Of a stretch of 64,000 nucleotides of DNA, positions 22,540 through 62,065 are shown in pieces. The DNA is from Candidatus Magasanikiibacteriota bacterium (GTDB lineage Bacteria; Patescibacteriota; Patescibacteriia; Magasanikbacterales; GWA2-37-8), in the NCBI GenBank assembly GCA_963840935.1, contig CAWJAS010000002.1, forward strand, positions 7,333 to 71,332, written 5' to 3'. The notes under the pieces were generated by a model. It did not search any database and was not told the DNA's origin. It was given only the letters and a program-made list of their open reading frames with translations. The translations under genes and the position numbers were made by a program. Numbering within the stretch: the stretch's first letter is position 1; each line of letters begins with the position of its first letter.

Positions 22540-24133
<1,594 letters not shown>

Positions 24134-37016: not shown

Positions 37017-40000
37017 TTAGCTTCCTGCCATCGGCACAACCACCACCCAGCCATCATAATATATCCAAGGTCTCACCTTATTTATTTCACAATCATTAAC
37101 AGTCATCTCACTATAACACCCTTTCCCATCTACTTGTGGATTTGAAGAATATGTACAACTCCCCGTGCACCAACCCCAATTATCAAGCACATGAACTTTT
37201 GGCCGGGCAACGCAAACATATGGGGCATTATAAAAATTCTGACGGATATAATTCCAATCAATTGACCTGCCGGAAATCGGAGTATCCGGCTGTTCGTTGC
37301 TCATCACAATCTCCATTGTGCCATAAGGGCAATTATAGTCCATTACAAAATCCCAAGGTTTATCTTTGCAACCGGTGTCTGTGGTGTTGCCGAAAGTTCG
37401 CTCCTCGGCGCTTTGCGGATAACAAGATGAACCACCGCAATCGGCATTAGTATTGCACGTAAAAGGCCAATCTTCTTCGTCGTTACCGCATGTACTATCA
37501 GTGCACAAAGGTTTTCTATTACCTATTGAATCGCTAATTTCCGAATCAACTTGTGTATCATTATCATCACCTTTATTAACAACCACTCTGCGTAAGGGCA
37601 TTTGATTGCCATGCGCCCAAGCATAAAATTTAATTCGCGTCTGCGAACCGGAAAATAAATAAATATTCCCACTGGTGGTGCCATTGACAGAAATTTTGTC
37701 TAACTCCCAAGAACTGCCTGATGGCGCGGCAACTTGAGGCGGATAAATATCCATTTGTCCAATTCTACTTGCATTTGTTGGATTCGCAGCATCAACTTCT
37801 TGATAATACGATACATACCCGATATCAAAACCGTTTTCCACGTCATTATAATAATAATCATAGACTTTTGCGAACATGCTTTTCATCAACACTTTTTCAA
37901 AAGGCCCTTGTTGCATTGAAGTAGTATCTTCCATGGCATCCAAACTATATTTAAAATATTCGGGAAGACAATAAGACCCAGTACAATCATTTTTACGCTT
38001 ACCGCTCCAAGCAACAGACAGCGGGGTGCCAGCCTTATAATTTGTAAACGCATAATTATTATCTTGACTTCCGTTTTGCGAAAAAGGAATATTCTTTGTA
38101 TCTAAATTTAAATTAAAAACAAATGGGTTAATAAAAGCTGCGGTGGTAATACCTGTGATATCCACTAATCCGGATTCTGTACTGTAAGCAAGGCCGTATT
38201 TTCCGCCATTCAACGTCTCTTCTCGAGGAGAAACTTGCGCGGTCGTTGGATAATTACTACTAAAACTGACGACCTTATCTGTATTTAATCGATTGGTAAA
38301 CGGTTTGGCCAAGAAGTCGCTCGTGCTACTAACCATTGAGACCTGAGCGAACTTTTGACATTTACCGGGAGCAAAATGAATAACAAAGAAATAGCCTAAA
38401 CCGGAGTTGCCAGAATGTAAACCATTTTCAACATTCAACCAAATACCGCGGAAATAGTATTGATCATCAAATACTATCCTAACTCCGATACTTTCTTTTT
38501 CATCTTCAAAAGCATGATAAACCATTCTGTCTTTATCTTCACAAATTCCCTCAATAGCTATTTTTTCCTTACCTAAATCAGTGCTACTTCCATCAGACCA
38601 TTGATTCAACCAATTCGGACTGCCACTGTTTTTTGCATACCAAGTCCAGGCGCGCCAATCTTTACCGTCTTTACACAAATTATCCAACGAAGCGGTTGAA
38701 ATACTTGTTTCACCTTCATTGGTTATCCAACCACCGTCTTCTGTAATAAAAGCTCTGTTTGATTCTTCCTCTGCGTCCGCATCGACTGAATCTCTTATGA
38801 AACTGACCCACCCTCCTCCTTTTGGCATATTGGTCGCGCTGTCAAGAAATACATCTATTCTTTCTATTTCATCGCGATGAATATATTTTCCGCTTTCAGT
38901 GTTCAACCATTTTCTATCTGTATACCACCAACCCTCGTTGTCCCTGCACCCTTCCGGTGTCTCATAGCAACCCCTTTGTGTCAATTCATCAACATCTGTA
39001 ATGTCAACATTTACAGGACAGTACCAGCCATTAGAATCATTACTATCGGTAGACTGATAGTAACGCATATCCCAACCCCAATCACTACTAACTTCATATG
39101 AACAACCGATTAATATCGCGTTATCCGGAACACCTTTTATGCCCATACCGGCTGACAAACTTAAATCAGAAATCATTGAATCGTCTCTCATCATTCCTTT
39201 GGGCCAATTACCTCCGAAATCTTTTGCATTAGAATTACCCATGGCAATGCCGACATTTTGATATGAATCTTGTATAGTAGGCTCATTTTCCAAACACATA
39301 AATCTATCCTGCGCGCCTTCAAGAATTTCATATCCGGCATTCGGGTCTTGCTCCCAATAATTGGGAATACCCGGCGGATATTCGAGTGGGAACCAAGTCA
39401 AACAAGCATTGGAAGTTGAACCGTAAATTCTTTGGCGTTCGTCTCGTTCGGTGCAATAGCCAAGCCAGCCATTCATCACTTGAAAACTATTTATTTTGGA
39501 GCAGATTCCACCTTCTCCGCATTGAGTGGTTGTTTCCGGGTCAGTGCAAAATTTGCCTTTGTACGGGCCGGATGAACAAATATAATTACCGGACATTGAT
39601 TCTGTTTTGCTTATACGCTTGTAAACATCGCCACTGCCGGTTTTTAATTTTCGATATGAACAATAATAATCATAATCGCAAGAAACCGGATTGCCATTAT
39701 CACTATAACATAAGTTCACATTTTCAAATCCCGTTTTGTATTGAAGCGGTTTATCTCTTTCATAATCAATAAGCACGCTCGACCTGAAAGGACTGACTTC
39801 TTCGGCATATGCCCGGCAAGTCAATACTCTTGATTGCGCCGGATTTGTGGCGCTGTATCCTTTCAAACATTCGCCGTTATAACAATAACCCCAAGTACCA
39901 CCGGGCCCGCACTGGTCGCCATCGTCTTTTTGTCCATAAAGAAGATCTGCGGAATCATAACAGCTATTGATATCGTCTTCATTCAAAAAACTATATTGAT

Positions 40001-43000
40001 TGTTCACATAAACCAAACGATAAGTGTCATCAATTTTTCTGGCTGTAAGGTCGGGCACTTGATAAGTGTTAAAAAGCGAATAACCGGAAAAATCCCAGGA
40101 ATCCCAAGAGGTCATCAAATCCTGATAATAATCTTTTGACAATGTTTCACCTTTTGTATCCCAATCGGTCGCCGGTTCGGCGCAATCCTTGACCACTCGA
40201 CCGGCGACAGTGTCAACCGCGCCGGCGCGATTACAAACACCAAGATGATAGCAACGATTTTTTATTTCACCGGAATCTTCATCTTCAAATTCTTGTTTAA
40301 GGTCGCAATAGGCCCACTCTCCGCAAACACGGTCTTGAGTCACTTTAATAATAATATTGGCGTCATTACTACCAGTAAGAGAAACCGGCGCGACAAGAGC
40401 GTCGTTTAATTCACGCGATGTTTCATATGATGAAGTGGTGTGCCAAAATTTATTTGGATTGCCGGTTTTATCAAGCAAAACACATCCTTCCGCTCGGCTG
40501 ATTTGGCCGTTACACTTGCTTTGAGCTTCACTTAATTTTGTATTATCAATTAAATAATAGGCGTTGCTCGTATTAACCACGCAATATCCGTCAGTTTCCG
40601 GAACACAGTCACTATCGGCATTGCACTTTTTACCGCTAATGGAACATTTTTTGTTTTCTTGCGTACTACTCCAATCAATAAATTCATTACAACCCGACTG
40701 TTCTTCGGGGCAAAGACCGACAAAACCGGTATATTTTTCTGTGTTGCCGAATGACCAAAGACCATACACTCCAAAAGATTTATTTTCCGCGTAACAAGGA
40801 AGTTGATTTTTGAACATACATTTACCTATGCCAATATGGTTCTCACAGTCGGTGTCAGCGGTACAGGCTCGACCCATATATAATCCGGCGTCTTCCAAAA
40901 TACAAATTCCGGTATCTTTCCATATCCACCCGGTTGAGTTAGGATGCGCGGATAATTTCGAAGTTGAAGTTGGTTGCATTTGCAATGTTGCCGGCAAATG
41001 GATAGCGATAAAGGCTTCTGTCTTGTATTCACAAATCAAACCGCCGTTTGTTACCGGGTCTTTAAAGTAATAATTGCTCTGGCTTGAAGACCATGATTTG
41101 CAGGATTCGGCCTCGGAGAAACAAGACATTGATTCATAAAGAGCCGGGTCATTTTTTATGCCCACGGCCTCAAATGTTTCATAGTGAGTGAACAGCGTGG
41201 TTGGATTGCCAAAAAAATCAAAATTATAACTCTTTCCGCTTATGTTTGTTGTGGCGCGCCCCACAACTTGGCAACCCATATTTTCGGATTTGCATGTGGC
41301 TGATTTATTGGCCACCAAATATATGGGCGTGCTTGACGGAGTATCCGCCGGAATAAATATGGTTGAATCAACCAACTTTGGCTTTGCGTTATCACCGACA
41401 GTTTCCCCGCCGTTAAATATTTGCTCCGCGGTTTTATCAAAAACATCAACATAACAACCTGTCTGGCCGGTCGGGGCAAAACATTCAAAAAGTTCACCAT
41501 CTATTGTTGCTTTTGCTTGCATCCCCGGAGTTAAACTGGGTTCATACATAAGCAATTCCAATCGCACATTATAAGCGCGGGAAGTCGTATCTTCCGGAGT
41601 GTTAAATGTGTCAATCAAAGCGGTGCAACCAACCGCCGCTTCACGGCATAAATAATTAAAATTGGTAAGATAGTAATTGGTTTGTGTCGGGTCAGTGTAT
41701 GCCGAACAACCCAAGGCCTCGCCCGGTAAATTATCATTTGTGTTACTGTCGCAAATCGGGTCAACACTCAAAGAATTTTTTACCAAATACAGGTAATCAT
41801 CAACTTCCGTCAAAATAATATTATCTATATAAATCTGCCCGACACTATTCCCGAAAGTAAAACGCAATTCACCGCTCAAGGTATCTTCTCCGTTGTATTC
41901 AACCGGTCCCAAGGAATAATAGCGCCAAACATCCGATAAAACTAAAGTGTTGTCAGATAATGATTGCTCTGTCATGGTGGAATTATCCAACAAAGCAATT
42001 TTGTTTATCGCTAAATTGCCTTTCGCCCAAAATGACAAAACGTAATTCTTGCCTTTTTTAAATGATAAATTAATTTTACCGGCCAGACTATTAGCAGATG
42101 CCGATTCGGCTGTAATTTTGAGAGAATGACCTTCGAGCTGAGTCGATTCCGTGGAAATTATCTCGCTCATGCTAGCCGTAGTTTTCCAATCAATCGTTGT
42201 GGTTGAATATTCAAAATCCTCTTCAACAATCTTGCGAACATTGTATCCGGCGTTACCTTTGAAGGACCGGCATGAATTTGATTCGGCAGAACAGGCAATA
42301 CTATCGCCGGCGCCATTTGTGTTGCCGGTAAAGCCCATATAGAAACAAGCATTGCTTCGGAATTCAACCGTGGCATCACCGGTGTGGTTGTCAACTTCAC
42401 CATTATCAAAATCAAACGGACAGCGAGGGGCCTCGCTTTCATAAGAAATCAATTCAGTGTTATTAAGCCGGTACGGAGTGCACTGGTCGGTGACAATTAA
42501 TGTTTTTGAAAGCATGGCATAATGCGTGTCGCCAAATTCATCAATAAATTGATGACAATCTGGTTCGGCCGTTTTGTTAGCGTAGCTCTCTTCCGAGCAA
42601 TAATCATTATCCGGCGCGGTATATTTATTCATCTCATCTCCATCGCGATAAATTTGTTTAGGCCCGTTTGATTTGTCGCTCTTCGCCAAAGTATATGTTT
42701 TAATTTCATAGCCTTTTGTTTCGGAACGCTCATAGACAGTGTAATTTCTTTGCAAATTTTGGTCAGGCAAAATGCACGGACGCAAATAAGTGAAGTATTC
42801 GTTTTGTTCCAATCCGCCGACCGTGGTGGATAAATTTGTGAACGAACTGCAACCGGCTTCTTCGGCCGAGCAAGTTTTTCCGGATGATGGAATAATGTAT
42901 GTTATTAATTCACCATTGGTGTAGTTACTTGGCATTTCACGATAAGCATCATAACCAACGCATTTGTAATCGCATTGGTCGTTCCATGTGACAATTCCCC

Positions 43001-45293
43001 CTTCAACAACCGCCGGCGTAAACTTGCCCGGAATCACTTCACGGGTCAATGCCGAGGTATAAAAATTACAATTTTCTTCTTCAGGCAAACAAACTTGGGC
43101 GTATTGATTGCAAGCTTCTTTGTTTTGCGGATTAATCAAATTTAAATCAGAAAAAGTCAAAGGCCATTGAATGCCGTTTTTTAATTTTTTATTTATTAAA
43201 TCAACCTTATTAACGCCGGTTGAGCTATCAGCATCATAACAACCCAAATAATCCGGAGCTTTTCGCAAATATATTAATGTATCCGTATTTGAGGCGAGTT
43301 TAAACGCGCTACAACCATCATCGGCCGAATTACATGTCGCCACTTTTTTGTTAAAAAATAAACTGGTGTTAAAAAATATATCGTGAGCCACTTGGTATTC
43401 CGCTATGGCCGGGAACCAATCCGTGCTCGTTGCCGTATCGTAATATTCTACTTGCGAATACCGCCGGCATCCGTCATTTTCTTCATTGCAACTTACCGTG
43501 TCCAAAGTGCGTAATAAATATGAACCGGTTGTTTTGTCGGAAGCAGTGAAAGCCAGACAACTATTGTATTGTTCGTCACAATAATCCGCGTCAAAACTCC
43601 AAATCGGCTTTTCTCTCAAGCAATAACCCCAATTGGCGCAAGAGCCATCGGAGTTAAATTTAACGCAATGCTGAATATCGGCGCAATATTGCAAACGCAC
43701 CGGACTATCGGTGTAATTAACGGCGCTGTAAGCAAGCGACCCGCATCTGGTTTTTGGATATTTAATAATCCAATACGGATTTACCAAATGATAAAATTTT
43801 GAGGTTTCATCATAATAAGCGTCCACCACTTCTTTGAGTGTCGCTTCATTGCCTTCAGTCGAATATGAAGAAGCAATCTCGAGTCCCAAAGGCATTATTC
43901 GCAACAATCTGAGCATCCGAAGATTGCGATTGCAATACGCTTCCAAAGCGCAATCACGCTTTTGATTCATGGCTTCATTATTCGCGGAATAGAGTTTCCA
44001 ATCACCGTGCAAAAGACCCTGTTCAATCGCCTGCTTGATGGTTAAGGCTTGACCATAACTGGCTTGGCTCAATATTTGCAAAAATGATTGGTCAACCACG
44101 CAGGCATCAGGCGCAAAATTATCCGGCGAACATTCCGCCAAATTGCCGGTCGGGTCATAATTTTCAATCGTGCTGATTTTTGGCATTAACAATTCCGAAA
44201 ACATTTCTTGCGCCGCTCGTCTTTGGCCGGATGTTCCGCCGGCTGAACCGGCTGAGTAATAATCTCCGGCCACTGATTCATCGTCAAGACACATATTCCA
44301 ACCCAAACCGGAAATACTTAATCCGGGATTGCATATTACCTTTCCTCCGGGCAACATCCCTTTGGTGATAAAGTTATCAATTACCGTGCCCAATAAAGTG
44401 TTAACAAAAGTGGCGGCAGTATTGGTTAAAAGTTGAATTCCACCTTTTTGCACCGCCATACCCATGGCGGCCGTGTTCACATCTGAATCATCTTTTTTCT
44501 TTGTTGAGGGGGCTTGTGCCTGAAATTCTTGCGCCATTACGGTAGCTGGTACTTTTGTTTTTCCGGAAATAATATCTTTCAAAGGGTTAACACCATCTCC
44601 CTCTTGACGATCTAAGGACTTACCACCTTCAACTTCAACCGCGTAATTATCAACTTTTTGTTTGGCGGAAAACCAAATCCCAAAATCAGTATCTTTAACC
44701 GAAATCCCGCCTTCAAGTCTGTTCATCAACCCTTCTTGGCTGGCATACTGGCTCCGAATATTATCTATATTATATGCTTCGCGCAATTGTTGCCATGTAC
44801 ACCTTGGCTCTGGCGGGTCAGCGCCAAAATGAAAACCAAGTTGTAAAGCCAATTGCAAACGCAAATCCGGCAAATTACACAAATCCATGCCCAGCATATC
44901 ACCCATTGAACCGATAATTTCACCAAGAGCGTCACCGGCGGTTTGGGCCAGATAATCCTTAAAACTTTTTGTTTCCGCAAAGGGTCCTTGCCCCAAATCA
45001 CCGGAGGCAAGCCACACCCCCATATCATAAGCGATTTTATTGGCAAAATAGTTCAAGCCATTGGTCACGGCACCAATAGCCAAAAGAAGCATTTTTTCTT
45101 TTGCGTTCATTTTTACTTCAGTGACTCCCTGTTTTACCAACCAAGCTTCCATGTTGGGGGATTGAAGAGGTATCGACACTGTCATTTGCGCTTTTGCGAT
45201 ATTTGGCACCAAAAATAATGACCCAAAAACAGAAATAAAAACAAAAACAATCGTCATCGTTAATAATCTGAATTTTGTATTCCCAAAAATCAT
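37017..45293 (-). CDS. giant secreted/cell-surface protein (2,758 aa), Cys-rich
   Basis: uninterrupted 8.3 kb ORF with N-terminal signal peptide MIFGNTKFRLLTMTIVFVFISVFGSLFLVPNIAKA. Confidence 0.8.
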   Translation of the reverse strand: MIFGNTKFRLLTMTIVFVFISVFGSLFLVPNIAKAQMTVSIPLQSPNMEAWLVKQGVTEVKMNAKEKMLLLAIGAVTNGLNYFANKIAYDMGVWLASGDLGQGPFAETKSFKDYLAQTAGDALGEIIGSMGDMLGMDLCNLPDLRLQLALQLGFHFGADPPEPRCTWQQLREAYNIDNIRSQYASQEGLMNRLEGGISVKDTDFGIWFSAKQKVDNYAVEVEGGKSLDRQEGDGVNPLKDIISGKTKVPATVMAQEFQAQAPSTKKKDDSDVNTAAMGMAVQKGGIQLLTNTAATFVNTLLGTVIDNFITKGMLPGGKVICNPGLSISGLGWNMCLDDESVAGDYYSAGSAGGTSGQRRAAQEMFSELLMPKISTIENYDPTGNLAECSPDNFAPDACVVDQSFLQILSQASYGQALTIKQAIEQGLLHGDWKLYSANNEAMNQKRDCALEAYCNRNLRMLRLLRIMPLGLEIASSYSTEGNEATLKEVVDAYYDETSKFYHLVNPYWIIKYPKTRCGSLAYSAVNYTDSPVRLQYCADIQHCVKFNSDGSCANWGYCLREKPIWSFDADYCDEQYNSCLAFTASDKTTGSYLLRTLDTVSCNEENDGCRRYSQVEYYDTATSTDWFPAIAEYQVAHDIFFNTSLFFNKKVATCNSADDGCSAFKLASNTDTLIYLRKAPDYLGCYDADSSTGVNKVDLINKKLKNGIQWPLTFSDLNLINPQNKEACNQYAQVCLPEEENCNFYTSALTREVIPGKFTPAVVEGGIVTWNDQCDYKCVGYDAYREMPSNYTNGELITYIIPSSGKTCSAEEAGCSSFTNLSTTVGGLEQNEYFTYLRPCILPDQNLQRNYTVYERSETKGYEIKTYTLAKSDKSNGPKQIYRDGDEMNKYTAPDNDYCSEESYANKTAEPDCHQFIDEFGDTHYAMLSKTLIVTDQCTPYRLNNTELISYESEAPRCPFDFDNGEVDNHTGDATVEFRSNACFYMGFTGNTNGAGDSIACSAESNSCRSFKGNAGYNVRKIVEEDFEYSTTTIDWKTTASMSEIISTESTQLEGHSLKITAESASANSLAGKINLSFKKGKNYVLSFWAKGNLAINKIALLDNSTMTEQSLSDNTLVLSDVWRYYSLGPVEYNGEDTLSGELRFTFGNSVGQIYIDNIILTEVDDYLYLVKNSLSVDPICDSNTNDNLPGEALGCSAYTDPTQTNYYLTNFNYLCREAAVGCTALIDTFNTPEDTTSRAYNVRLELLMYEPSLTPGMQAKATIDGELFECFAPTGQTGCYVDVFDKTAEQIFNGGETVGDNAKPKLVDSTIFIPADTPSSTPIYLVANKSATCKSENMGCQVVGRATTNISGKSYNFDFFGNPTTLFTHYETFEAVGIKNDPALYESMSCFSEAESCKSWSSSQSNYYFKDPVTNGGLICEYKTEAFIAIHLPATLQMQPTSTSKLSAHPNSTGWIWKDTGICILEDAGLYMGRACTADTDCENHIGIGKCMFKNQLPCYAENKSFGVYGLWSFGNTEKYTGFVGLCPEEQSGCNEFIDWSSTQENKKCSISGKKCNADSDCVPETDGYCVVNTSNAYYLIDNTKLSEAQSKCNGQISRAEGCVLLDKTGNPNKFWHTTSSYETSRELNDALVAPVSLTGSNDANIIIKVTQDRVCGEWAYCDLKQEFEDEDSGEIKNRCYHLGVCNRAGAVDTVAGRVVKDCAEPATDWDTKGETLSKDYYQDLMTSWDSWDFSGYSLFNTYQVPDLTARKIDDTYRLVYVNNQYSFLNEDDINSCYDSADLLYGQKDDGDQCGPGGTWGYCYNGECLKGYSATNPAQSRVLTCRAYAEEVSPFRSSVLIDYERDKPLQYKTGFENVNLCYSDNGNPVSCDYDYYCSYRKLKTGSGDVYKRISKTESMSGNYICSSGPYKGKFCTDPETTTQCGEGGICSKINSFQVMNGWLGYCTERDERQRIYGSTSNACLTWFPLEYPPGIPNYWEQDPNAGYEILEGAQDRFMCLENEPTIQDSYQNVGIAMGNSNAKDFGGNWPKGMMRDDSMISDLSLSAGMGIKGVPDNAILIGCSYEVSSDWGWDMRYYQSTDSNDSNGWYCPVNVDITDVDELTQRGCYETPEGCRDNEGWWYTDRKWLNTESGKYIHRDEIERIDVFLDSATNMPKGGGWVSFIRDSVDADAEEESNRAFITEDGGWITNEGETSISTASLDNLCKDGKDWRAWTWYAKNSGSPNWLNQWSDGSSTDLGKEKIAIEGICEDKDRMVYHAFEDEKESIGVRIVFDDQYYFRGIWLNVENGLHSGNSGLGYFFVIHFAPGKCQKFAQVSMVSSTSDFLAKPFTNRLNTDKVVSFSSNYPTTAQVSPREETLNGGKYGLAYSTESGLVDITGITTAAFINPFVFNLNLDTKNIPFSQNGSQDNNYAFTNYKAGTPLSVAWSGKRKNDCTGSYCLPEYFKYSLDAMEDTTSMQQGPFEKVLMKSMFAKVYDYYYNDVENGFDIGYVSYYQEVDAANPTNASRIGQMDIYPPQVAAPSGSSWELDKISVNGTTSGNIYLFSGSQTRIKFYAWAHGNQMPLRRVVVNKGDDNDTQVDSEISDSIGNRKPLCTDSTCGNDEEDWPFTCNTNADCGGSSCYPQSAEERTFGNTTDTGCKDKPWDFVMDYNCPYGTMEIVMSNEQPDTPISGRSIDWNYIRQNFYNAPYVCVARPKVHVLDNWGWCTGSCTYSSNPQVDGKGCYSEMTVNDCEINKVRPWIYYDGWVVVVPMAGS

Positions 45294-45295
45294 AA

Positions 45296-45967
45296 TTAAT
45301 CTTCAGCTTCTTCAGCCATTAATTTATTGATATATTCAATCGCTTTTAAAGTGTCTTCGTTGCCCACTTCTTCTTCGGTCGTTAAGTCCTCTGAGGCAAG
45401 AATATCTGTAACCATTTGATTCAATTCTTCATCACTGATTTGGTCAACAACACTTTTGTCCAAACCGGAATCAATCAAAATTTGGCGCATTGTCGCAGGG
45501 TCATATAATTCGCCCAGATCATCAAGCGAGGTCGGTATTATACTGTCATCCGCCACAAAAAGATCGCTTTGGTCCGGTTTGTCTGGCAAGGTCGAGGCAG
45601 TGTCCACCACGCTTCCACAAACTTGCCCTTCCGGGCAGTTTGGATTCTTACCTTGTCTGACTTCGTCGTAATCGGATATGCCGTCCGAATCGGTATCGGC
45701 CAAATAAGGGCTCGTGCTATAAACAAACAATTCATCGTAATCGCTAAGACCATCATTGTCCGTATCGCGATATCGCAGAACCTCTGAAGTGTTGACTTCT
45801 TTCCCAATTAAAGGAGGAACGGAGGTATTCAGCGCAAACGGTTTATAAAGAGTGTTCCTGACTTGAATCAAGCCCAGAGTTACGGCAAGCAAAACAAAAA
45901 CAGACAGCAAAACCAAGCCGATTTTCTGCTCCTTTGAGTAGCGGTTAGCTTGTTCATCCATAATCAA
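45296..45967 (-). CDS. membrane-anchored protein with thrombospondin type-3-like Ca-binding repeats
   Basis: N-terminal TM; DTDNDGLSDYDE and DTDSDGISDYDE (DxDxDGxxDxxE); 2-nt spacing to the giant gene. Confidence 0.7.
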   Translation of the reverse strand: MIMDEQANRYSKEQKIGLVLLSVFVLLAVTLGLIQVRNTLYKPFALNTSVPPLIGKEVNTSEVLRYRDTDNDGLSDYDELFVYSTSPYLADTDSDGISDYDEVRQGKNPNCPEGQVCGSVVDTASTLPDKPDQSDLFVADDSIIPTSLDDLGELYDPATMRQILIDSGLDKSVVDQISDEELNQMVTDILASEDLTTEEEVGNEDTLKAIEYINKLMAEEAED

Positions 45968-46077: not shown

Positions 46078-46896
46078 CTACAATTCTTTGGCCAAAAAAC
46101 CCCACTGCTCAATGCTTAATTCCTGCGCCCTGGCCGTTTGTTTGATATTTATTTTTTCAAACGCTTCCCTAATTTTTTGCTTATTTTTTTTACCGAAAAT
46201 CGGTTCCAAATTTTTTATCAGTAATTTACGACGACTGGAAAATCCGGCTTTTACCAATTGAAAAAACTTTTGAGTTTTTTCGGCCGTTATTTGTTTTTTG
46301 CTTAATGACAATTTTATTATAGCCGAATCTACTCTTGGTTCCGGCCAAAAATTTGAACGCAAAACTTTGGCTATAATTTTTGGCTCGGCATAATATTGCA
46401 CCGCTACCGATAAAACCGACATGTCCCCGGGCCTGGCGCAAATTCGCTCGGCTACTTCTTTTTGTACCATTAATATCATTTGCGCGGGCGGATTATTTGT
46501 TTCCAAAAAAGCGCGAATAATGGGCGAGGTAATTTGATATGGCAAATTGGCGACGACTTTATATTTTTTATCCGGCATATTATCAAGATGCTTAAGCGCG
46601 TTGCCCCAAACAATTTCCACATTGCCTGGCTTTTTATCACTCCAATAATCCGCCAATTTTTTTTCTATTTCAAACGCGATAATTTTTTGAGCGCGCTCAG
46701 ATAAGGCAAAAGTTAGTGGGCCAAAACCCGGACCGATTTCCACAATCGTATCTGTTTTTTTTATCTCCGCCGATTCAACTATTTGTTCAATCACTTCTTC
46801 GTTAATTAAAAAATTTTGACCGTATTTTTTACTCGGCCGAAGATTGTATTTTTGACAAAGGAATTTTAGATGGTCGATGTTAAAAAGTTTTGACAT
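46078..46896 (-). CDS. rsmA: 16S rRNA (adenine1518/1519-N6)-dimethyltransferase RsmA/KsgA
   Basis: KKYGQNFLINEEVIEQIV...IVEIGPGFGPLTFALS...NLPYQITSPI. Confidence 0.9.
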   Translation of the reverse strand: MSKLFNIDHLKFLCQKYNLRPSKKYGQNFLINEEVIEQIVESAEIKKTDTIVEIGPGFGPLTFALSERAQKIIAFEIEKKLADYWSDKKPGNVEIVWGNALKHLDNMPDKKYKVVANLPYQITSPIIRAFLETNNPPAQMILMVQKEVAERICARPGDMSVLSVAVQYYAEPKIIAKVLRSNFWPEPRVDSAIIKLSLSKKQITAEKTQKFFQLVKAGFSSRRKLLIKNLEPIFGKKNKQKIREAFEKINIKQTARAQELSIEQWGFLAKEL

Positions 46897-46913
46897 TTAA
46901 AAAATGTTAATTA

Positions 46914-47027
46914 TTATCAATAAGTATTGAAGGCAGTCGCGGACCCCGATTCAATCGGGAATCGGGGGAGCGTTAGAGCGACGCGTCTTCAGACGCGGAG
47001 ACTCGTGCCTGAAATGCTTGTTGATAA
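46914..47027. mobile_element. 114-bp MITE-like intergenic repeat, copy 1 (22-bp terminal inverted repeats TTATCAATAAGCATTGAAGGCA)
   Basis: four near-identical copies in the window with TIRs and an internal GC-rich hairpin. Confidence 0.7.
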
Positions 47028-47054
47028 TAAATAAATAATTCTAAAAATATTAAA

Positions 47055-48200
47055 TTATTTTCTAAGCCCCGCATCTGTATAGCGGTTGCTTGCATTCCAC
47101 AAAAACCAACCGGCATCCGAATATTTTTCCGTCACTTCAATTTGGTCTCTAATTTTTTCCGCCCCATAAACCGCGCCAAGGTCAAAAGCCTGAATCCAAG
47201 GCCGAAGCATTGCCCGCCTGCCTTCAAAACGATCCGCTCCAAGCTTCATTCCATTTTCAAAAACCAAACGCGGATAATCGGCCGGATTATTAAGACCCAA
47301 ATGACCGGGCGGATAATGAGAAGGATACATCATCGGGCAAACATAATCGGAAAAATCAAGTGCATCTTCCAAACGCTGACCGATATTCATGTCGTCTTCA
47401 CCGGATTTTTCCATCACAAAACCAAACATATCAAGCGACAGCCATACCGGTTCAGCAGACAAACCGCGACTTAAAAAATCAAAAAATTCTCGCATCACTT
47501 CATATTTTTTCTTATCTCCCACCGTGTACACAACCTCACTCATCCTGCCGTCGGACGGAAACCTGACATAATCAAAATTTATTTCATCAAAACCGAGTTT
47601 TGCCACTTCTTTGGCTATGGCCAAATTGTATTGCCAAACTTCAATGTTCGTCGGGTCAACCCAAGCAAGGCCCTTGTGATCACGCCACAATCCCCCGTTT
47701 TTATTTTTTATCGCCCATTCCGGTTTTTTCTCGGCCAAAATCGGGTCCTGAAAAACAGTTTGCCTGGCAATAACATAAATATTTTCTTCTTTTAATTTTT
47801 TAACAAGCTCCTTCGCGTCGCCCAAACGATTGTCTTTTGTTTTTAATTGAATAACCGCTGGAATTTGGCTGTCATACAAAACAAGTCCGCTGTAATCTTT
47901 AATATCAATAATGACCGCGTTTAATTCCGTTCTTTTTATGAGAGCGATTATTTCATTCAATTTTTTGGCGCTCCCGGCGCTGTAAGCGGTCAAATACAAT
48001 CCTTTTACTTTGATCAACGGATTTTTTTGACCATAAATTAATCTATGAAAATTATTTGAAGAAGTTAACCAAGTATTATTTTCAATATCAATCAAAGTGA
48101 TTTTCCAAAAAAATAAAATTGATATGGCGGATAAAATTGCCACAGCGCACATCAAAAAAACTCCCAAACTACCAAATTGTTTATTTGAAATCTGATTCAT
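47055..48200 (-). CDS. putative glycoside-hydrolase-like TIM-barrel protein (DUF4015-like), N-terminal TM
   Basis: conserved core IIDIKDYSG...FDEINFDYVRFP...CPMMYPSHY; start at ATG 48200 because the upstream extension lies inside MITE copy 2. Confidence 0.5.
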   Translation of the reverse strand: MNQISNKQFGSLGVFLMCAVAILSAISILFFWKITLIDIENNTWLTSSNNFHRLIYGQKNPLIKVKGLYLTAYSAGSAKKLNEIIALIKRTELNAVIIDIKDYSGLVLYDSQIPAVIQLKTKDNRLGDAKELVKKLKEENIYVIARQTVFQDPILAEKKPEWAIKNKNGGLWRDHKGLAWVDPTNIEVWQYNLAIAKEVAKLGFDEINFDYVRFPSDGRMSEVVYTVGDKKKYEVMREFFDFLSRGLSAEPVWLSLDMFGFVMEKSGEDDMNIGQRLEDALDFSDYVCPMMYPSHYPPGHLGLNNPADYPRLVFENGMKLGADRFEGRRAMLRPWIQAFDLGAVYGAEKIRDQIEVTEKYSDAGWFLWNASNRYTDAGLRK

Positions 48201-48222
48201 GATAAATGTTTTATATTTTTTA

Positions 48223-48336
48223 TTATCAATAAGTATTGAAGGCAGTCGCGGACCCCAATTCAATCGGGAATCGGGGGAGCGTTAGAGCGCCACGCCTTCA
48301 GGCGTGGCGACTCGTGCCTGAAATGCTTATTGATAA
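48223..48336. mobile_element. 114-bp MITE-like repeat, copy 2 (central stem carries compensatory substitutions)
   Basis: tatcaataagtattgaaggcagtcgcggacccc...gcgccacgccttcaggcgtggcgactcgtgcctgaaatgcttattgataa. Confidence 0.7.
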
Positions 48337-48344
48337 TAAAAAAA

Positions 48345-48941
48345 TTACAAAATTTTTAAGCCTCCTTGTCTGATCAATTTTATATCCCTTCCCGATGCTT
48401 CAACAATGGTAGTGGGCGAATTTTTTGGCAAATCTCTTCCATCGACCAAAACATCAGGCGGATTATCGCTCAAAGAAAATATTTCATTTATTTCAGCAAA
48501 ATTATACAATGACTCCTCGCCGGAAATATTGGCCGAAGTCGCCACGAGCGGACCATTCATTTTTTGGCATAATTCTTTCAGCCACAGATCATCGGGCACT
48601 CTAACCGCCACTGTATTATTTTTTGACACTACTCCACGAGTCAAAGAAAGCCCGGAATACTCGCCGATAACCGTCAAAGGACCGGGCCAATATTTTTTGG
48701 CCAGTTCATCTATATTTTTATTCCAAACCAAATAATTTCTTGCGCTTTGAATATCGGGCACAATAATCAAAAGCGGTTTGTTATAATCACGTTTTTTTAT
48801 ATCAAAAATTCTGTCCACCGCTTGTTGATTTGAAGCATCGCAACCGAGGGCGTAAGAAGTTTCGGCCGGAAAAATTATAACATCTCCCCTTTTAAAACGC
48901 TCCGCCAAAATATCAATATCTTTCTTAGATAAAATATCCAT
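48345..48941 (-). CDS. tsaC: L-threonylcarbamoyladenylate synthase TsaC/YrdC
   Basis: IIFPAETSYALGCDASNQQAVDRIFDIKKRDYNKPLLIIV...GPLVATSANISG. Confidence 0.85.
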   Translation of the reverse strand: MDILSKKDIDILAERFKRGDVIIFPAETSYALGCDASNQQAVDRIFDIKKRDYNKPLLIIVPDIQSARNYLVWNKNIDELAKKYWPGPLTVIGEYSGLSLTRGVVSKNNTVAVRVPDDLWLKELCQKMNGPLVATSANISGEESLYNFAEINEIFSLSDNPPDVLVDGRDLPKNSPTTIVEASGRDIKLIRQGGLKIL

Positions 48942-48991
48942 GATTATATAATTTTTAACCTGTCACTCGCGAGCGACGAGTTTCATTTTTA

Positions 48992-49104
48992 TTAGCGATA
49001 AGCATTGAAGGCAGTCGCGGACCCCAATTCAATCGGGAATCGGGGGAGCGTTAGAGCGACGCGTCATCAGACACGGAGACTCGTGCCTGAAATGCTTATT
49101 GACA
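48992..49104. mobile_element. MITE-like repeat, copy 3 (ends slightly degenerate)
   Basis: gcgataagcattgaaggcagtcgcggaccccaattcaatcgggaatcgggggagcg...gtgcctgaaatgcttattgaca. Confidence 0.65.
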
Positions 49105-49147
49105 AACAAATATTTATGCGGTGGGTAATATTTTTTGAAATTTACTC

Positions 49148-50221
49148 TTATTTCTTGATCCACTTCAAATACGCCTCGCACAAAGGCATCAAATCCCCTT
49201 CCAAAACAGACTCCGGGTCAGCCGATTCATAATCAGTGCGGTGGTCTTTAACCATATGATATGGGTGCAAAACATAAGAACGAATCTGATTCCCCCATTC
49301 AGCTGATTTGTATTCTCCACGCAAATCTTTTTTTTCTTTTGCGATTCTTTCTTGTTCCAATCTGAATAATTTTGCCCGTAAGATTTTCATCGCCGTTTCT
49401 TTGTTTTGTTGTTGCGAACGCTCATTCTGGCATGAAACGCTGATACCGGTCGGAGTATGGACAATGCGAACGGCGGAGTAAGTGGTGTTAACGCTTTGTC
49501 CGCCGTGGCCACCGGACATAAAAGTATCAATTCGCAAATCTTCCGGCTTAATTTCAATTTGGACGCTTTCGTCAATCTCCGGCAAAACTTCAATCAAAGC
49601 AAAAGATGTATGGCGCATTTTTTCGGCGTCAAAAGGCGAAATTCTGACCAATCGGTGAACGCCATGCTCGGATTTTAAATAACCAAAAGCATACAGTCCT
49701 TTAATTTCAACTGTAACGGATTTATAACCGGCTTCAGCACCGCGAGATTCATCAATCACGCGAACACGCCAATTCATTTTCTCCGCGAACCGCAAAATCA
49801 TCCGCAAAAGCATTTCCGCCCAGTCCTGCGCCTCGGTACCGCCCGAACCGGCATGTATGGCGACAACGGCATTATTTTTGTCGTACGGCCCATTAAGCAA
49901 AAGAAAAAATTCATAATCAGCAAACTTATTTTCCAATTCACTAATTTGTTTTTCGATTTCTTCTTTAATATTTTCTCCCTCGGAAGATGAAAGCTCTTCC
50001 AAATCGCGCGCCTCTTTTTCCAAATCACACCATTTATCAACTTCTTTTCTTATATCATTATAATCGGCGGAAATAGACTGGGCCCTTTCTTGATTACTCC
50101 AAAAATCCGGCTCGTTCATTTCTTTGCCAAGCTGTTCCATCTTTTTTTTGAGTTCATCAATATGAAGCAATTCCATTGTCGCTTTTATTTTTTGTTGTAA
50201 ATTTTTCAACTTCTCAGTCAT
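49148..50221 (-). CDS. prfB: peptide chain release factor 2 (contiguous ORF, no programmed frameshift)
   Basis: SPF tripeptide (RISPFDAEK) and GGQ motif (SGGHGGQSVNTT); start at ATG 50221 because the upstream TTG extension lies in MITE copy 4. Confidence 0.9.
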   Translation of the reverse strand: MTEKLKNLQQKIKATMELLHIDELKKKMEQLGKEMNEPDFWSNQERAQSISADYNDIRKEVDKWCDLEKEARDLEELSSSEGENIKEEIEKQISELENKFADYEFFLLLNGPYDKNNAVVAIHAGSGGTEAQDWAEMLLRMILRFAEKMNWRVRVIDESRGAEAGYKSVTVEIKGLYAFGYLKSEHGVHRLVRISPFDAEKMRHTSFALIEVLPEIDESVQIEIKPEDLRIDTFMSGGHGGQSVNTTYSAVRIVHTPTGISVSCQNERSQQQNKETAMKILRAKLFRLEQERIAKEKKDLRGEYKSAEWGNQIRSYVLHPYHMVKDHRTDYESADPESVLEGDLMPLCEAYLKWIKK

Positions 50222-50238
50222 AATAAGTGTAATTTTAA

Positions 50239-50352
50239 TTATCAATAAGCATTGAAGGCAGTCGCGGACCCCAATTCAATCGGGAATCGGGGGAGCGTTA
50301 GAGCGACGCGTCTTCAGACGCGGAGACTCGTGCCTGAAATGCTTGTTGATAA
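50239..50352. mobile_element. 114-bp MITE-like repeat, copy 4
   Basis: ttatcaataagcattgaaggcagtcgcggaccccaattcaatcgggaatcgggggagcgttagagcgacgcgtcttcagacgcggagactcgtgcctgaaatgcttgttgataa. Confidence 0.7.
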
Positions 50353-50417
50353 TAAAATAGATTGATTCGAAAAGTAATAATTCTGAAAAAGATGTGTTTT
50401 ATTAAAAAAGATCACTT

Positions 50418-51797
50418 CTACCATCCAAACATCTTCCCGATTTCTTCCGGCGTCTCACGTCGGCGAATTAGCTTTATTTCTCCGTTCGTGGCCACTAATT
50501 TTGCCGGGCTTGAAAGCAAACAATGGTGCGATGACAACGGATCTTGATAAGCGCCGGTGTCAAAAACGGCGACATATAAATCCTGACAATCATCAATTCT
50601 CGGAAGCATTATACAATCGCCCGCGGTATAGCGGTCGTCGCTGTCGCAACTGGAACCGGCCAGCCAAACTTTCTTTAATTTGGTTCGGTTCATATTATTC
50701 ACGGGCACAATATGCCACTTCTGGTGAATTGCCCAGGTGTCAGACAAGTCATTAATAAAACTTCCGTCAATGGAATACCAATATGTGTCTGTTTTATTTT
50801 CCACTAATTTTTCCGACAATACATTATATATGGTAATCTGAGTCGGCGCGACTACATAGCGCCCCCATTCAACAATAATATTCGGATGTTTGATGCCAAG
50901 TCGCTCGCTGTGTTTTTTACACGCCCGCACCACATGGCTAATAAGACTTTTGGCGGTATAATATCTTTTCTTTTTTTCATAAGGCACACCGGCTCCTCCG
51001 CCCAGATCAAGAGTATCCAAACCGGGATTTTTTTCTTTCAACTGGGCATATAAATTAATCGCTCGATGCAGAGGGCGAAGCATGCCTTCAATGCTATCAA
51101 TCTGGCTGGAAATGTGATAATGAAGAATTGATAAATTGCGGACGCGCCCAATTTTTACAAGTTCCTCTTCGGTAAAACCATAGCGATTATATTTTTTATC
51201 CCAACGACTGGGAACGCGCACATTCAAATTAACTCTGATACCAACAGGTCCGTTAAACTTTTTCATTCTTTCAAGTTCCACATAATCTTCAATAATCGGG
51301 ATTATAACCATGCCTTTACCCCTCAGCTCCTCAATTAATTTCATGTATTTTTCCGTCTTTGGGCCGTTGCAAATAACGCGGATTTTGGCGTGAAATTTTT
51401 CTTGTTCCAGCATTCTTTTGACCAAAAAAAGTTCATTTGCAGACGACACTTCCAAATTTGCTTTTTCGGCTACCGCCGGCAAAACCATTTCGCGATTCTG
51501 ATTTACCTTCATGGCGTAATGATAAAAAAATTTTCCTTTATATCCCGATATCTTTATATAGGCGTTAAATGTCTCAATCAAATCACGAACGCGATTTTCT
51601 ATTAAAGTGGGAAAAACAATTTCCGTCGGTGTGCCGAATTTTTTTACAATATCATATATATTGTATTGATAATTTCCTTCACGCACCGTGAGCTCTCCGT
51701 CATGGCTCAAATCAAACTGTTCGGTATTGTATTCCTCAAAACCGAGTTTCCATAATTTTTTGAACCGCGTGTATGACCGGTTTTTTGATTTTTTCAT
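50418..51797 (-). CDS. PLP-dependent fold-III decarboxylase, arginine decarboxylase (SpeA)-like short form
   Basis: FYHYAMKVNQNREMV (PLP-lysine motif), LHYHISSQIDS, DLGGGAGVPY, GSSCDSDD. Confidence 0.65.
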   Translation of the reverse strand: MKKSKNRSYTRFKKLWKLGFEEYNTEQFDLSHDGELTVREGNYQYNIYDIVKKFGTPTEIVFPTLIENRVRDLIETFNAYIKISGYKGKFFYHYAMKVNQNREMVLPAVAEKANLEVSSANELFLVKRMLEQEKFHAKIRVICNGPKTEKYMKLIEELRGKGMVIIPIIEDYVELERMKKFNGPVGIRVNLNVRVPSRWDKKYNRYGFTEEELVKIGRVRNLSILHYHISSQIDSIEGMLRPLHRAINLYAQLKEKNPGLDTLDLGGGAGVPYEKKKRYYTAKSLISHVVRACKKHSERLGIKHPNIIVEWGRYVVAPTQITIYNVLSEKLVENKTDTYWYSIDGSFINDLSDTWAIHQKWHIVPVNNMNRTKLKKVWLAGSSCDSDDRYTAGDCIMLPRIDDCQDLYVAVFDTGAYQDPLSSHHCLLSSPAKLVATNGEIKLIRRRETPEEIGKMFGW

Positions 51798-52891
51798 AAA
51801 TTATTTTTTTTGTTAAGACACTCAATAATACCGATTAAAATCATATTGGCAAGGAGCGATGAACCGCCAGAACTGACAAAAGGCAAAGTGACACCTGTCA
51901 CTGGCATGATGCCAATATTAGCTCCAATGTTAATGAATAATTGCGAAAAAAACAAGATGGCTGCACCCATGGCGCAAAGAGCGGTAAAGTCGTCTTTTGT
52001 CCGTCTGGCAATCAAAACCAGGCGCCAAATAATAAGCATAAATAAAAATAAAATGACAGCCACTCCGGCCAAGCCAAGCTCTTCGCTGATAACCGAAAAA
52101 ATAAAGTCAGTCTGTGTTTCCGGCAAAAAACGCAACTGACTTTGCGAACCAAAACCCAAACCGCGTCCGAATACTCCACCCGAACCGACGGCAATTACCG
52201 ATTGAATCGTGTTGTAACCGGAACCCAATGGGTCGCGTGAAGGGTCCATAAAATTTAAAACCCGGTCTTTTTGGTATGGAGCAAGCAAATACATCCAAGC
52301 AAAAACCGAAATAGCGCAAAAAAGCGCGACAAAAGCGATTAAATATAATTTTCTAACACCAACAATCCACATCAGGCCAAACCAAATAGCCCCGAGCAAT
52401 ATCGCCGAACCCAAATCAGGCTGAAGCAATGTTAAAAAAATAGGTATTAATGTAATGACTCCCGTGCCCAAAAAAAACAAAGGCCTGTCAAAACGACGAC
52501 CGAAGTTGGAAGCAACATAGGCAAGCATTAATATCAGACCGACTTTTGCAAACTCAACCGGCTGAATGGAAAAACCGGGAAAAGCAAACCAACCGGTTGT
52601 GCCACGAATATTATCCCCAAAAAATAAAACAGCGACAAGAAACAAAACAGTTATGGTATAAAACCACTTGGCGTAGGCCCGAAAAATTGTCGGCGCGGCA
52701 AAGGCCGATAAAAATAAAAAAACCGCTCCAACACCAAAAGCGGCCAATTGTTTTTTACTATAAATCAAAGCCGAGCCTCGAGACAAGTCAACGCTGTAAA
52801 TAGCGGCAAAACCGATCGCGCATAACAAAAAAATCGCCGCCAAAAGAGGCCAATCAAACTCGCGCCATGAAACTCTGTTAAAAATCCTCAT
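51794..52891 (-). CDS. SEDS-family peptidoglycan polymerase RodA/FtsW
   Basis: 10-TM protein with ...PETQTDFIFSVISEELGLAGV... and C-terminal PFVSSGGSSLLANMILIGIIE. Confidence 0.85.
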   Translation of the reverse strand: MRIFNRVSWREFDWPLLAAIFLLCAIGFAAIYSVDLSRGSALIYSKKQLAAFGVGAVFLFLSAFAAPTIFRAYAKWFYTITVLFLVAVLFFGDNIRGTTGWFAFPGFSIQPVEFAKVGLILMLAYVASNFGRRFDRPLFFLGTGVITLIPIFLTLLQPDLGSAILLGAIWFGLMWIVGVRKLYLIAFVALFCAISVFAWMYLLAPYQKDRVLNFMDPSRDPLGSGYNTIQSVIAVGSGGVFGRGLGFGSQSQLRFLPETQTDFIFSVISEELGLAGVAVILFLFMLIIWRLVLIARRTKDDFTALCAMGAAILFFSQLFINIGANIGIMPVTGVTLPFVSSGGSSLLANMILIGIIECLNKKNNL

Positions 52892-57636: not shown

Positions 57637-58725
57637 TATAAACATGGCGTCGCCGAAAGAATAAAATCTATATTTTTGATTAACCGCTTCCTCATAACAT
57701 CGCAACAAAAATTCTCGGTCGCCGGCAAAAGCCGAGGTCAACATTATCAGTGTTGATTTTGGCAAATGAAAATTGGTGATTAGGGCATCGATTATTTTAA
57801 ATTCAAACCCCGGATAAATAAAAATATTAATATCTCCATTGTAAGGACGCAATTCACCTTTGTGAAGTTCGGCAATTCCTTCAAGCGCCCGGGCGGTAGT
57901 TGTACCAACGGCAATCACTCGCCTATTTTCCGCCTTGGCCGACCTAATCAAACTAACGTTCTTGTCGGTTAGCTCAACCCATTCCGAATGCATATTATGC
58001 TCTTCAACTTTTTTTTCTTTTACCGGCTGAAAGGTTCCGAGCCCGACATGCAATGTTATTTCGGCAAACTCCACTCCGATTGATTTTATTTTTTGGATCA
58101 ACTCATTGGTAAAATGAAATCCGGCAGTTGGCGCGGCCACCGAACCTTCTTTTTGCGCATACACAGTCTGATATTTTTCGGACAAATCACCTGAAGGATT
58201 TTCAATTTTAATATAGGGAGGAGTCGGCACTTCGCCATAACGATTGGCCTTTTCTCTAACCACCACATCTTCTTCATCAAATTGAACCAAAACCGTGCCA
58301 TCCGATTCTTTAACAATTACCTCGCAAGAAAAATCTTCGGCAAAAACAACTTTCATTCCCAAACGAAGTTTTTTTGCCGGTTTGGCCAGGGCCTTCCAAA
58401 CGCCATGATTTTCCATCGGACGCAAAAGAAATATTTCAACTTTCGGTGCGTTAAAAATTACTTCCGATGAATTCGATAAATCTATTCCGGCGACAACGGG
58501 ATTGGCCATAACCAACCCACGCAAACGAGCCTTAAAAACTTTTGAATTATTCCAAACCAATAAGTCCCCTTTTCGCAAATACTCAATAATATCATAAAAA
58601 TGCCGATGCTCAATCGTTTTATTTTTTTTATCAATCACCATCAATCGTGAATGGTCGCGTGGTTCAATCGGCATTTGAGCGATGGCTTCCTTTGGTAAAT
58701 TGTAATCAAAATCGGAAGTAAACAT
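57631..58725 (-). CDS. queA: S-adenosylmethionine:tRNA ribosyltransferase-isomerase QueA
   Basis: MFTSDFDYNLPKEAIAQMPIEPRDHSRLMV...ELHKGELRPYNGDINIFIYPGFEFKIIDALITNFHLPKSTL. Confidence 0.9.
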   Translation of the reverse strand: MFTSDFDYNLPKEAIAQMPIEPRDHSRLMVIDKKNKTIEHRHFYDIIEYLRKGDLLVWNNSKVFKARLRGLVMANPVVAGIDLSNSSEVIFNAPKVEIFLLRPMENHGVWKALAKPAKKLRLGMKVVFAEDFSCEVIVKESDGTVLVQFDEEDVVVREKANRYGEVPTPPYIKIENPSGDLSEKYQTVYAQKEGSVAAPTAGFHFTNELIQKIKSIGVEFAEITLHVGLGTFQPVKEKKVEEHNMHSEWVELTDKNVSLIRSAKAENRRVIAVGTTTARALEGIAELHKGELRPYNGDINIFIYPGFEFKIIDALITNFHLPKSTLIMLTSAFAGDREFLLRCYEEAVNQKYRFYSFGDAMFIK

Positions 58726-58732
58726 AATTTTT

Positions 58733-62035: not shown

Positions 62036-62065
62036 ATATTTTTTGAAAATTATTAAGATAGAAAT

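Follow-up and report, generated by a model that had tools for sequence, protein, structure and literature searches.

Structured repeats with a conserved fold and variable ends in operons of a candidate phyla radiation bacterium: a probable superfamily of mobile elements

Genomes of the candidate phyla radiation (CPR, Patescibacteria) are about 1 Mb in size, tightly packed and thought to be poor in mobile elements. A 64-kb stretch of the genome of a Candidatus Magasanikiibacteriota bacterium (contig CAWJAS010000002.1; the whole stretch is called the window here) carries four GC-rich repeats of 114 nt in consecutive spacers of one minus-strand operon, which raises the question of what kind of element they represent. 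An earlier note, made from the letters alone, had taken them for elements resembling miniature inverted-repeat transposable elements (MITEs) with 22-bp terminal inverted repeats (TIRs). Our analysis makes it probable that the copies, together with others in the window and in related contigs, belong to a superfamily of non-autonomous, structure-dependent mobile intergenic repeats of Magasanikbacteria-like CPR bacteria, which would be selfish in nature. A full-text search of the literature found no description of such repeat families in CPR bacteria. Three subfamilies, alpha, beta and gamma, were distinguished, with a GC-rich, non-coding core of ~115-150 nt.

Copies in the window and in related contigs

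The copies in the window are named c1 to c5, and L-numbers designate related contigs or loci, mostly metagenome contigs. Bit scores are those of the covariance models.

46914..47027, minus strand: c1 (alpha), in the spacer between the DUF4015/GH-like gene and rsmA; 154.6 bits
48223..48336, minus strand: c2 (alpha), interrupting a tsaC-DUF4015 fusion gene; 154.9 bits; compensated variant of hairpin A
48992..49105, minus strand: c3 (alpha), in the spacer between prfB and the tsaC-like gene; 141.7 bits; the most degenerate of the copies
50239..50352, minus strand: c4 (alpha), in the spacer between the decarboxylase gene and prfB; 153.2 bits
62063..62207, plus strand: c5 (gamma), between a gene for an rluD-like pseudouridine synthase and the guanylate kinase gene; 49.6 bits, E=3e-11

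The four positions first reported for c1 to c4 were confirmed, except that c3 ends at 49105 rather than 49104. These copies are co-oriented, each is 114 nt long, and a repeat finder grouped them into a single direct-repeat family (spacings of 1309, 769 and 1247 nt), each copy having inverted arms of 25-41 nt with 70 nt between them. Their pairwise identity is 89.5-98.2%, and a GC content of 52%, compared to 41% for the window, agrees with their description as GC-rich repeated non-coding elements. A 32-nt core pattern had 4 matches in the window against 0.00 expected (100 shuffles), and a 22-nt arm pattern matched both arms of c1 to c4 and nothing else. The divergent copy c5 surfaced in an unfiltered search with a second covariance model that included a beta copy, the first model having been built from five copies; it has the architecture of c1 to c4 but different stem sequences (structure z=-8.0). 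The window thus holds five copies in 64 kb, and related loci hold 0-2 copies per 20 kb. The unit actually inserted exceeds 114 nt.

The prfB protein points to a Magasanikbacteria-like lineage, and syntenic contigs were found via this protein, with identities of 91% for L003, 89% for L004-L008, 79% for L009-L010 (NCBI assembly GCA_026396515.1) and 79% for L011-L020. A 20-mer scan of metagenomes gave one true copy, L002, upstream of ybaB-recR. The first covariance model added copies in L003 at the c4 site (decarboxylase|prfB), in L004 at yceG|queA (beta, 87.7 bits), and in L021 and L022 at dnaB|ybaB, as in L002. Homologues of c5 were found in L009 (281-428 and 3998-4140, both on the minus strand), at the ends of L004, L005 and L006 (a partial copy at the DUF4015|rsmA site) and at the end of L024. 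At least six contigs of independent assemblies are broken within an element: L004, L005 and L006 terminate at the identical base, and L024, L010 and L023 also break within copies, as multi-copy repeats disrupt short-read assemblies.

Four alpha copies that are 89-98% identical within 3.4 kb might suggest local duplication or gene conversion within the operon, or an assembly artefact, with no real family behind them. This explanation is very improbable, as copies are present in independent assemblies of other samples and at unrelated loci, namely dnaB|ybaB (L002, L021, L022, L023), gyrB|secE (L009) and rluD|gmk (c5), the last lying 12 kb off on the other strand. The earlier note had asked for a search for further copies and regarded restriction to this locus by local tandem duplication as fatal to its proposal; c5 and the copies at unrelated loci in other contigs were the outcome, and they contradict such a restriction.

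Farther afield, no superfamily member was found in the more distant relatives L011, L033 and L035. An exact 20-mer scan of the GTDB representative genomes, which do not include the source genome, gave one chance hit in a Treponema coding sequence, and no copy was found in viral contigs (two patterns) or in phage, plasmid and E. coli collections. A chimera of peptides encoded by the element, used as a route through spurious open reading frames (ORFs), had no hit in a set of 5.8 billion proteins, and exact look-ups of window proteins returned no record.

Directly upstream of c5, an 18-nt sequence (TTTTTGAAAATTATTAAG) is directly repeated at 62015-62032 and 62040-62057, the first repeat supplying the final codons of the gene for the pseudouridine synthase, the second lying just past its stop codon. 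The sequence is single in L024, which has a different spacer, although L024 and the window are 97-100% identical from 52.8 to 60.2 kb.

A conserved fold and variable ends

Whichever strand is folded, each of c1 to c4 yields the same three-way junction, made of a long closing stem with a 2x2 internal loop and of two hairpins. The RNA z-scores lie between -5.2 and -9.8 (no shuffled sequence of 200 does as well), DNA folding parameters give a z of about -6.4, and the gamma members share the fold of the alpha copies. Hairpin A of c2 reads CCACGCC-UGAA-GGCGUGG in place of CCGCGUC-UGAA-GACGCGU, and the compensatory change noticed earlier in this copy therefore consists of real double substitutions that keep the hairpin. 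In the seven distinct alpha and beta sequences, whose covariation alignment was model-fitted and hence biased toward structure, the paired cells amounted to 94.7% and both sides had changed in 19 of 46 pairs, compared to 7.2 +/- 1.8 in column shuffles (0 of 500 reached 19); sliding the 3' partners left only 2-6 such pairs. An independent comparison across subfamilies, made by template parse, agrees with this result, and the covariation of the stem noted earlier is borne out.

One template accommodates all ten sequences of the alpha, beta and gamma subfamilies. Its 5' part is made of an outer stem of at least 12 bp and of arbitrary sequence, a UC loop, an inner stem (AGGCA/UGCCU or GCAA/UUGC) and the J12 strand. 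There follow P2, a 4-bp stem (GAGU/GCUC, AGCG/CGCU or AGUG/CACU) bearing hairpin A of 21-24 nt, then the 3-nt J23 (UAA, UCU or UCG), and P3, a 3-bp stem (CGC/GCG or CAC/GUG) with a UC loop, hairpin B of 22-59 nt and UCC. The 3' part comprises P3', A(C/U), the 3' strand of the inner stem, a UC loop and the 3' strand of the outer stem. The asymmetric UC/UC internal loop and the motif CRC-UC...UCC-GYG-A are invariant in the ten members, about ten unpaired nucleotides being unchanged in subfamilies whose stems have hardly any sequence in common. Converted into a DNA signature, the template retrieved exactly c1 to c5 in the window (0 expected), and in the fetched loci it retrieved the known copies and a 5'-truncated gamma remnant at the DUF4015|rsmA site of L003.

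The outer stem is the least conserved part of the element, whereas the interior is conserved. Its 5' strand, written as DNA, is TTATCAAYAAGC in alpha, TTAGCGAATATGC in the variant alpha-prime (L002) and TTTTGTGGCATGC in beta, and the gamma members have four different outer stems, two of them within the same genome (copies L009a and L009b), with pairing kept. The conserved feature is the fold and not the termini.

This bears directly on the initial assignment. MITEs are defined by TIRs and flanking target duplications, and the general traits of the class are present here, as the elements are shorter than 400 bp, carry no transposase ORF, occur in multiple copies and fold into a long stem-loop (PMC3184786). 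A classical MITE, that is, a deletion derivative of an insertion sequence on whose 22-bp TIRs a DDE transposase acts in trans, would account for the small size, the lack of ORFs, the long inverted ends, the copy number and the insertion polymorphism, and TA is found on both flanks of c1 and c2. We nevertheless regard it as improbable, because a transposase-bound TIR predicts conserved ends and the opposite is observed: inverted ends exist, but they differ among alpha, alpha-prime, beta and gamma and even between two copies of one genome. In addition, c4, L002 and the beta copy of L004 show no duplication, TA being self-complementary and common in AT-rich flanks, and the arm sequence is absent elsewhere in the window, including next to any transposase gene.

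A conserved fold combined with variable ends points instead to recognition by something other than a classical transposase acting on TIRs. The folded single-stranded form, DNA or RNA, may be recognised by a trans-acting factor that copies or maintains the element, and by analogy the mobilisation would be closer to that of REP and REPIN sequences with RAYT than to that of TIR-bearing MITEs with DDE transposases. The REP, BIME and REPIN sequences are likewise GC-rich structured extragenic repeats that lack TIRs and duplications, are recognised as a folded single strand, form mosaics or clusters and affect mRNA stability (PMC3116915, PMC3184786). However, REPs are simple hairpins of 20-40 nt and REPINs are doublets of these, whereas the present elements are three-way junctions of 114-145 nt with two internal hairpins, and their density of about one copy per 13-20 kb is below that of typical REP-rich genomes. 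Among the Pfam domains listed for ~250 kb of fetched loci, no RAYT was seen.

The invariant unpaired nucleotides, together with the strong structure z-scores, could also be those of a multicopy functional RNA, whose active or recognition core they would form; a family of small RNA genes, an RNA acting as a guide or a self-cleaving ribozyme of a new class would be examples. Several small ribozyme classes were first noticed as repeated intergenic motifs. This alternative is quite improbable. No promoter or terminator consensus is consistently tied to the elements, the junction strands are short and variable, and no partner gene was seen nearby. Rfam 15, searched at gathering thresholds and at E<=10 with the window region, c5, L009, L004 and L002, gave nothing credible, all known ribozyme classes included; only chance-level fragments were obtained, of STnc150, RAGATH-27, mir-1542 and SCARNA7 on alpha copies and of c-di-GMP-II-GAG on c5 (23 bits, against a threshold of 40). 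Inspection of the junction and loop sequences by eye led to the rejection of ribozyme cores (hammerhead-type and others), of K-turns and of attC cores. A sigma-70 promoter carried by the element was also rejected, as the sole near-consensus site (46890-46917, plus strand) takes its -35 box from the rsmA start region. The terminator role once suggested for the elements is not supported: on the minus strand none of the copies showed a terminator-like site, the stem is not followed by a U-tract, and the regional count is at shuffle level, so that they are not canonical intrinsic terminators.

The elements also occur as nested mosaics, with gamma fragments ahead of alpha and beta copies, a pattern similar to that of BIME and REP clusters. 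At three sites alpha and beta copies are preceded by a match to the gamma 5' end (GAATTATTAC-CTTTCGCAA..). Pieces comparable to the first feature below precede c3 (about 49106-49143), c1 (about 47028-47047) and the beta copy of L004. At the DUF4015|rsmA site, a gamma copy is found in L004, the truncated gamma remnant in L003 and the alpha copy c1 in the window, and the site is empty in L009 and L011. The second feature is a separate small repeat.

50354..50390 (approximate), minus strand: 5' extension of c4 (TTTTTCAGAATTATTACTTTTCGAATCAATCTATTTTA), resembling the gamma 5' end (outer stem strand, UC loop, start of the inner stem)
48950..48988, minus strand: 'delta' hairpin repeat (..CTCGTCGCTCGCGAGTGACAGG..), between c3 and the tsaC-like start codon

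A ~90% identical copy of the delta repeat lies at 14875-14910 of L024, beside a gamma copy. This repeat (AAACYCGTMGCTCGCGAGTGACRGGTWAAAAA) adjoins element copies in two genomes, and it is terminator-like on the strand antisense to the genes.

Insertion into compact operons

The genes around c1 to c4, all on the minus strand, are those named at the outset (rsmA, GH-like, tsaC, prfB and decarboxylase), as Pfam confirmed:

46078-46896, minus strand: rsmA (Pfam RrnaAD)
47055..48200, minus strand: DUF4015/GHL6 gene, 3' half of the apparent ancestral fusion; c2 is followed after 22 nt by its new ATG; the mechanical ORF begins within the element, at 48263
48345..48941, minus strand: tsaC-like gene (Sua5_yciO_yrdC), 5' half of the apparent ancestral fusion, now free-standing; stop codon 8 nt before c2
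49148-50221, minus strand: prfB (PCRF+RF-1)
50418-51797, minus strand: decarboxylase gene (Orn_Arg_deC_N)

In L009, L010, L011 and L013 the same operon is compact and element-free, with spacers of 1-8 nt. The c2, c3 and c4 sites are empty in L004, and the c2 and c3 sites in L003. The c3 spacer, between prfB and the tsaC-like gene, measures 206 nt in the window, 32 in L003, 14 in L006 and 1 in L009, and in L004 the called genes overlap. At the c4 site, L003 has an orthologous copy, and L004 and L009 have none, their spacers measuring 18 and 3 nt, respectively.

The converse situation is found at yceG|queA (window 58724-58733; L004 1466-1672; L009 281-428). Here L004 carries a 207-nt insert with the beta copy in sense orientation, L009 carries a gamma copy in antisense orientation, and the site is empty in L003, L011 and the window, where yceG TAA is followed by AAAAATT and queA ATG; the flanks of the window and L004 are 98-99% identical. 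The copies in L004 and L009 are independent insertions at one site.

One insertion appears to have divided a gene. The tsaC and DUF4015 domains are encoded by one gene of 573-583 aa in L003, L004, L009, L011 and L013, that is, in all five related lineages examined (576-578 aa in the distant relatives L009, L010, L011 and L013), and the fusion has a transmembrane-like linker (coordinates 11107-12828 in L003 and 11076-12806 in L009). In the window (47055-48941, minus strand) there are two separate intact ORFs with their boundary exactly at c2, which in a protein alignment falls between the segments ..QKII and DFFGF.. of the fused product. The intervening sequence of 164 nt is not a multiple of three, so that read-through is precluded, and it brings a new stop and a new start codon. 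The separation of tsaC and DUF4015 looks like a gene fission by repeat insertion. Since the relatives have the element-free operon and the fused gene, the window copies are the derived state, and the comparison of these sequences shows recent insertions into compact operons, one of them inside a gene. It also shows the elements to be non-autonomous and either mobile or at the least subject to rapid turnover.

The alignment with relatives further revealed a break of ancestry inside ftsW (51794-52891) at ~52.8 kb, above which the window is 97-100% identical to L004 and L024 and below which it is 79-92% identical, whereas L003 is uniformly ~87% identical to the window. This indicates a probable recombination breakpoint between lineages. 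A break at c4 was ruled out by its position in ftsW.

The arrangement of co-oriented imperfect palindromes of ~115 nt between co-directional genes recalls the attC sites of integrons. The bottom strand of attC, when folded, has an asymmetric bubble of unpaired bases and a distal part that varies, and both features, as well as the conservation of structure over sequence, have their counterpart here. That the copies are attC sites between gene cassettes is nevertheless extremely improbable. The ends are not conserved and carry no RYYYAAC/GTTRRRY core, there are no conserved R-box cores, no integrase gene adjoins the cluster, and the intervening genes are essential housekeeping genes whose order is kept without the elements in relatives.

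The insertion sites also matter for annotation. The mechanical ORFs 47055-48263 and 49148-50245 extend into elements, and homologues place the true starts at 48200 and 50221; the warning that the elements overlap called N-termini and have to be excluded in start calling was well founded. Among the Rickettsia palindromic elements, which are likewise small palindromic repeats of a reduced genome, insertions can land inside coding genes (PMC3184786), but there they are in frame and translated, whereas c2 lies between a stop codon and a new ATG, and the intervening length is not a multiple of three.

Orientation, sequence constraint and possible effects on RNA

Ten insertions were deduced in total. 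Two sites received two each, DUF4015|rsmA (gamma, alpha) and yceG|queA (beta, gamma). Alpha entered three other window sites, alpha-prime entered dnaB|ybaB, and rluD|gmk and gyrB|secE each received a gamma element. Nine of these ten are in sense orientation to both flanking genes (binomial P=0.011). The bias tracks transcription and not the direction of replication, as c1 to c4 (minus) and c5 (plus) occupy opposite strands of a window whose GC skew is negative throughout. Most copies end 17-27 nt upstream of a start codon, the distance being 17 nt from c1 to the rsmA ATG and 17 nt from c4 to the prfB ATG. Three lineages have kept an extended -10 box (TTGATATAAT) at dnaB|ybaB, and the alpha-prime copy lies between this box and the ybaB start codon, which places it in the 5' untranslated region (5' UTR).

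The same 5' UTR position, held by alpha-prime in L021 and empty in L033, is occupied in L035 (about 9470-9620) by a different GC-rich structured element with the closing stem GTCATTGCGAGAAG...CTTCTCGCAATGAC, which the covariance model did not detect. This element suggests that more families of the same kind exist in the clade and that dnaB|ybaB is an insertion hotspot.

Orthologous copies are far better conserved than their surroundings. Between L002 and L021 the element is identical at 116 of 116 positions, compared to 90-97% for the spacer, 85.8% for ybaB and 82.0% for recR; between c4 and L003 it is identical at 112 of 114 positions, with 96.5% for the whole unit and 85.5-87.8% for the flanking genes (P about 8e-12 for both pairs combined). 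Such near-identity implies purifying selection or recent homogenisation.

Because the elements are sense-oriented inside operons and 5' UTRs, they are probably co-transcribed, and a co-transcribed copy would form a very stable intercistronic RNA structure. On this model the structure would uncouple the adjacent cistrons and might serve as a processing or stability site, an effect that we would see as a consequence of the presence of the element and not as the reason for its existence.

The reverse is possible but unlikely, namely that the element is a cis-acting RNA module beneficial to the host, bound or processed on the mRNA (for instance by RNase III on the closing stem of at least 20 bp, or by a protein), which sets the stability or translation of its neighbours and spreads by recombination. 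The conservation of orthologous copies beyond that of the flanking coding sequence, the invariant loops between covarying stems, a sense bias that follows transcription and not the DNA strand, and the position shortly before start codons, in one case in a 5' UTR behind a conserved promoter, would all fit such a module. Correia elements provide a precedent, as their cleavage by RNase III and their creation of promoters affect the expression of neighbouring genes (PMC2649163). On the other hand, the element is dispensable, since close and distant relatives run prfB, tsaC, rsmA and queA without it; the downstream genes form no coherent regulon and one copy is antisense; and truncated and nested copies suggest decay, not maintenance.

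The invariant loops and the three-way junction might also represent a new, CPR-specific functional structured nucleic acid, either a mobile RNA module (processing site, protein platform or ribozyme) that rewires operons or the substrate of a structure-specific single-strand mobilisation system. The invariant unpaired nucleotides, the near-perfect conservation of orthologues and the orientation bias related to transcription are compatible with this reading, which we consider rather doubtful.

Several observations weigh against selfish mobile repeats, the reading that we prefer. Purifying selection for a host function could be the cause of the near-identity of orthologues, which would favour the host RNA module. 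The orientation bias drops to 6 of 7 (P=0.06) when c1 to c4 are counted as one event, and L009a is antisense. As the c1-c4 cluster lies entirely in a segment of ancestry unlike that of L004, part of the pattern of filled and empty sites could result from recombination between lineages and not from transposition in place. The counts of G-U versus A-C pairs (12 versus 8, 7 of the 12 from one invariant pair) single out no strand, and in silico the more stable fold is that of the strand opposite to the genes, since GA/GA loops take the place of UC/UC on it; the energies thus favour the antisense strand and the orientation statistics a constraint on the sense strand. A mobilising gene was not found within the ~64 kb of the source genome and the short stretches of relatives. 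Finally, the comparison of filled and empty sites at five positions gave no consistent direct repeat that would reveal a target-site duplication or defined ends, although AT-rich flanks mask 2-bp duplications.

Two further families of intergenic repeats invite comparison with these probable mobile elements. The Correia elements of Neisseria (CREE/NEMIS) are similarly intergenic and co-transcribed, ~100-150 bp long and variable in presence between strains, and their inverted ends form a double-stranded RNA stem. They differ by conserved 26-bp TIRs, a TA duplication and a site for integration host factor, whereas the present elements have variable ends, a conserved three-way junction, no duplication seen and inconsistent TA flanks; the two share no sequence similarity and belong to different phyla. 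The ERIC or IRU sequences are likewise imperfect palindromes (~127 bp) in transcribed intergenic regions and vary between strains. In Yersinia, orientation-dependent effects of ERIC on mRNA decay have been reported. Unlike the elements described here, ERICs occur in both orientations and form a single long hairpin, and there is no sequence similarity; a search for ERIC homology with blastn in distant mode against 5,426 complete E. coli genomes gave no match.

If the preferred reading is right, a superfamily of structured repeats is active in CPR bacteria on the timescale of strain divergence. The elements expand spacers of 1-18 nt to 140-210 nt within operons of essential translation genes and would break translational coupling there, and a conserved two-domain gene appears split into two. 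They also have practical consequences, as metagenome assemblies are repeatedly broken by them and gene callers over-extend N-termini into them, and they mark strain-level variation.

Some other features of the window were recorded. The 16S rRNA match at 1852-3183 (minus strand) ends at model position 1335 of 1533; the final ~200 nt, with the anti-Shine-Dalgarno end, were not detected downstream, and the ORFs in the region 1-1851 gave weak hits to sigma-70 region 4 and to 5'-3' exonuclease. The 16S rRNA gene may therefore have undergone an insertion or rearrangement. A giant ORF of 2758 aa (37017-45293, minus strand) lies directly downstream of the operon; its length is conserved in relatives (2758-2849 aa), in which it has weak CBM_4_9 hits. 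At 45595-45637 (plus strand), a weak Rfam PhotoRC-I hit (28.8 bits against a threshold of 45, E=2e-4) falls inside a TSP3-repeat ORF of the opposite strand and is probably due to chance. A 400-bp inverted repeat, 98% complementary (17122-17524 and 21892-22295), surrounds a 4.4-kb segment that encodes an N6_N4 DNA methylase and a ResIII/DEAD helicase and adjoins a large serine recombinase gene and a tRNA gene (22841-24097; 24041-24133). The region 17122-22295 looks like a mobile or invertible restriction-modification island.

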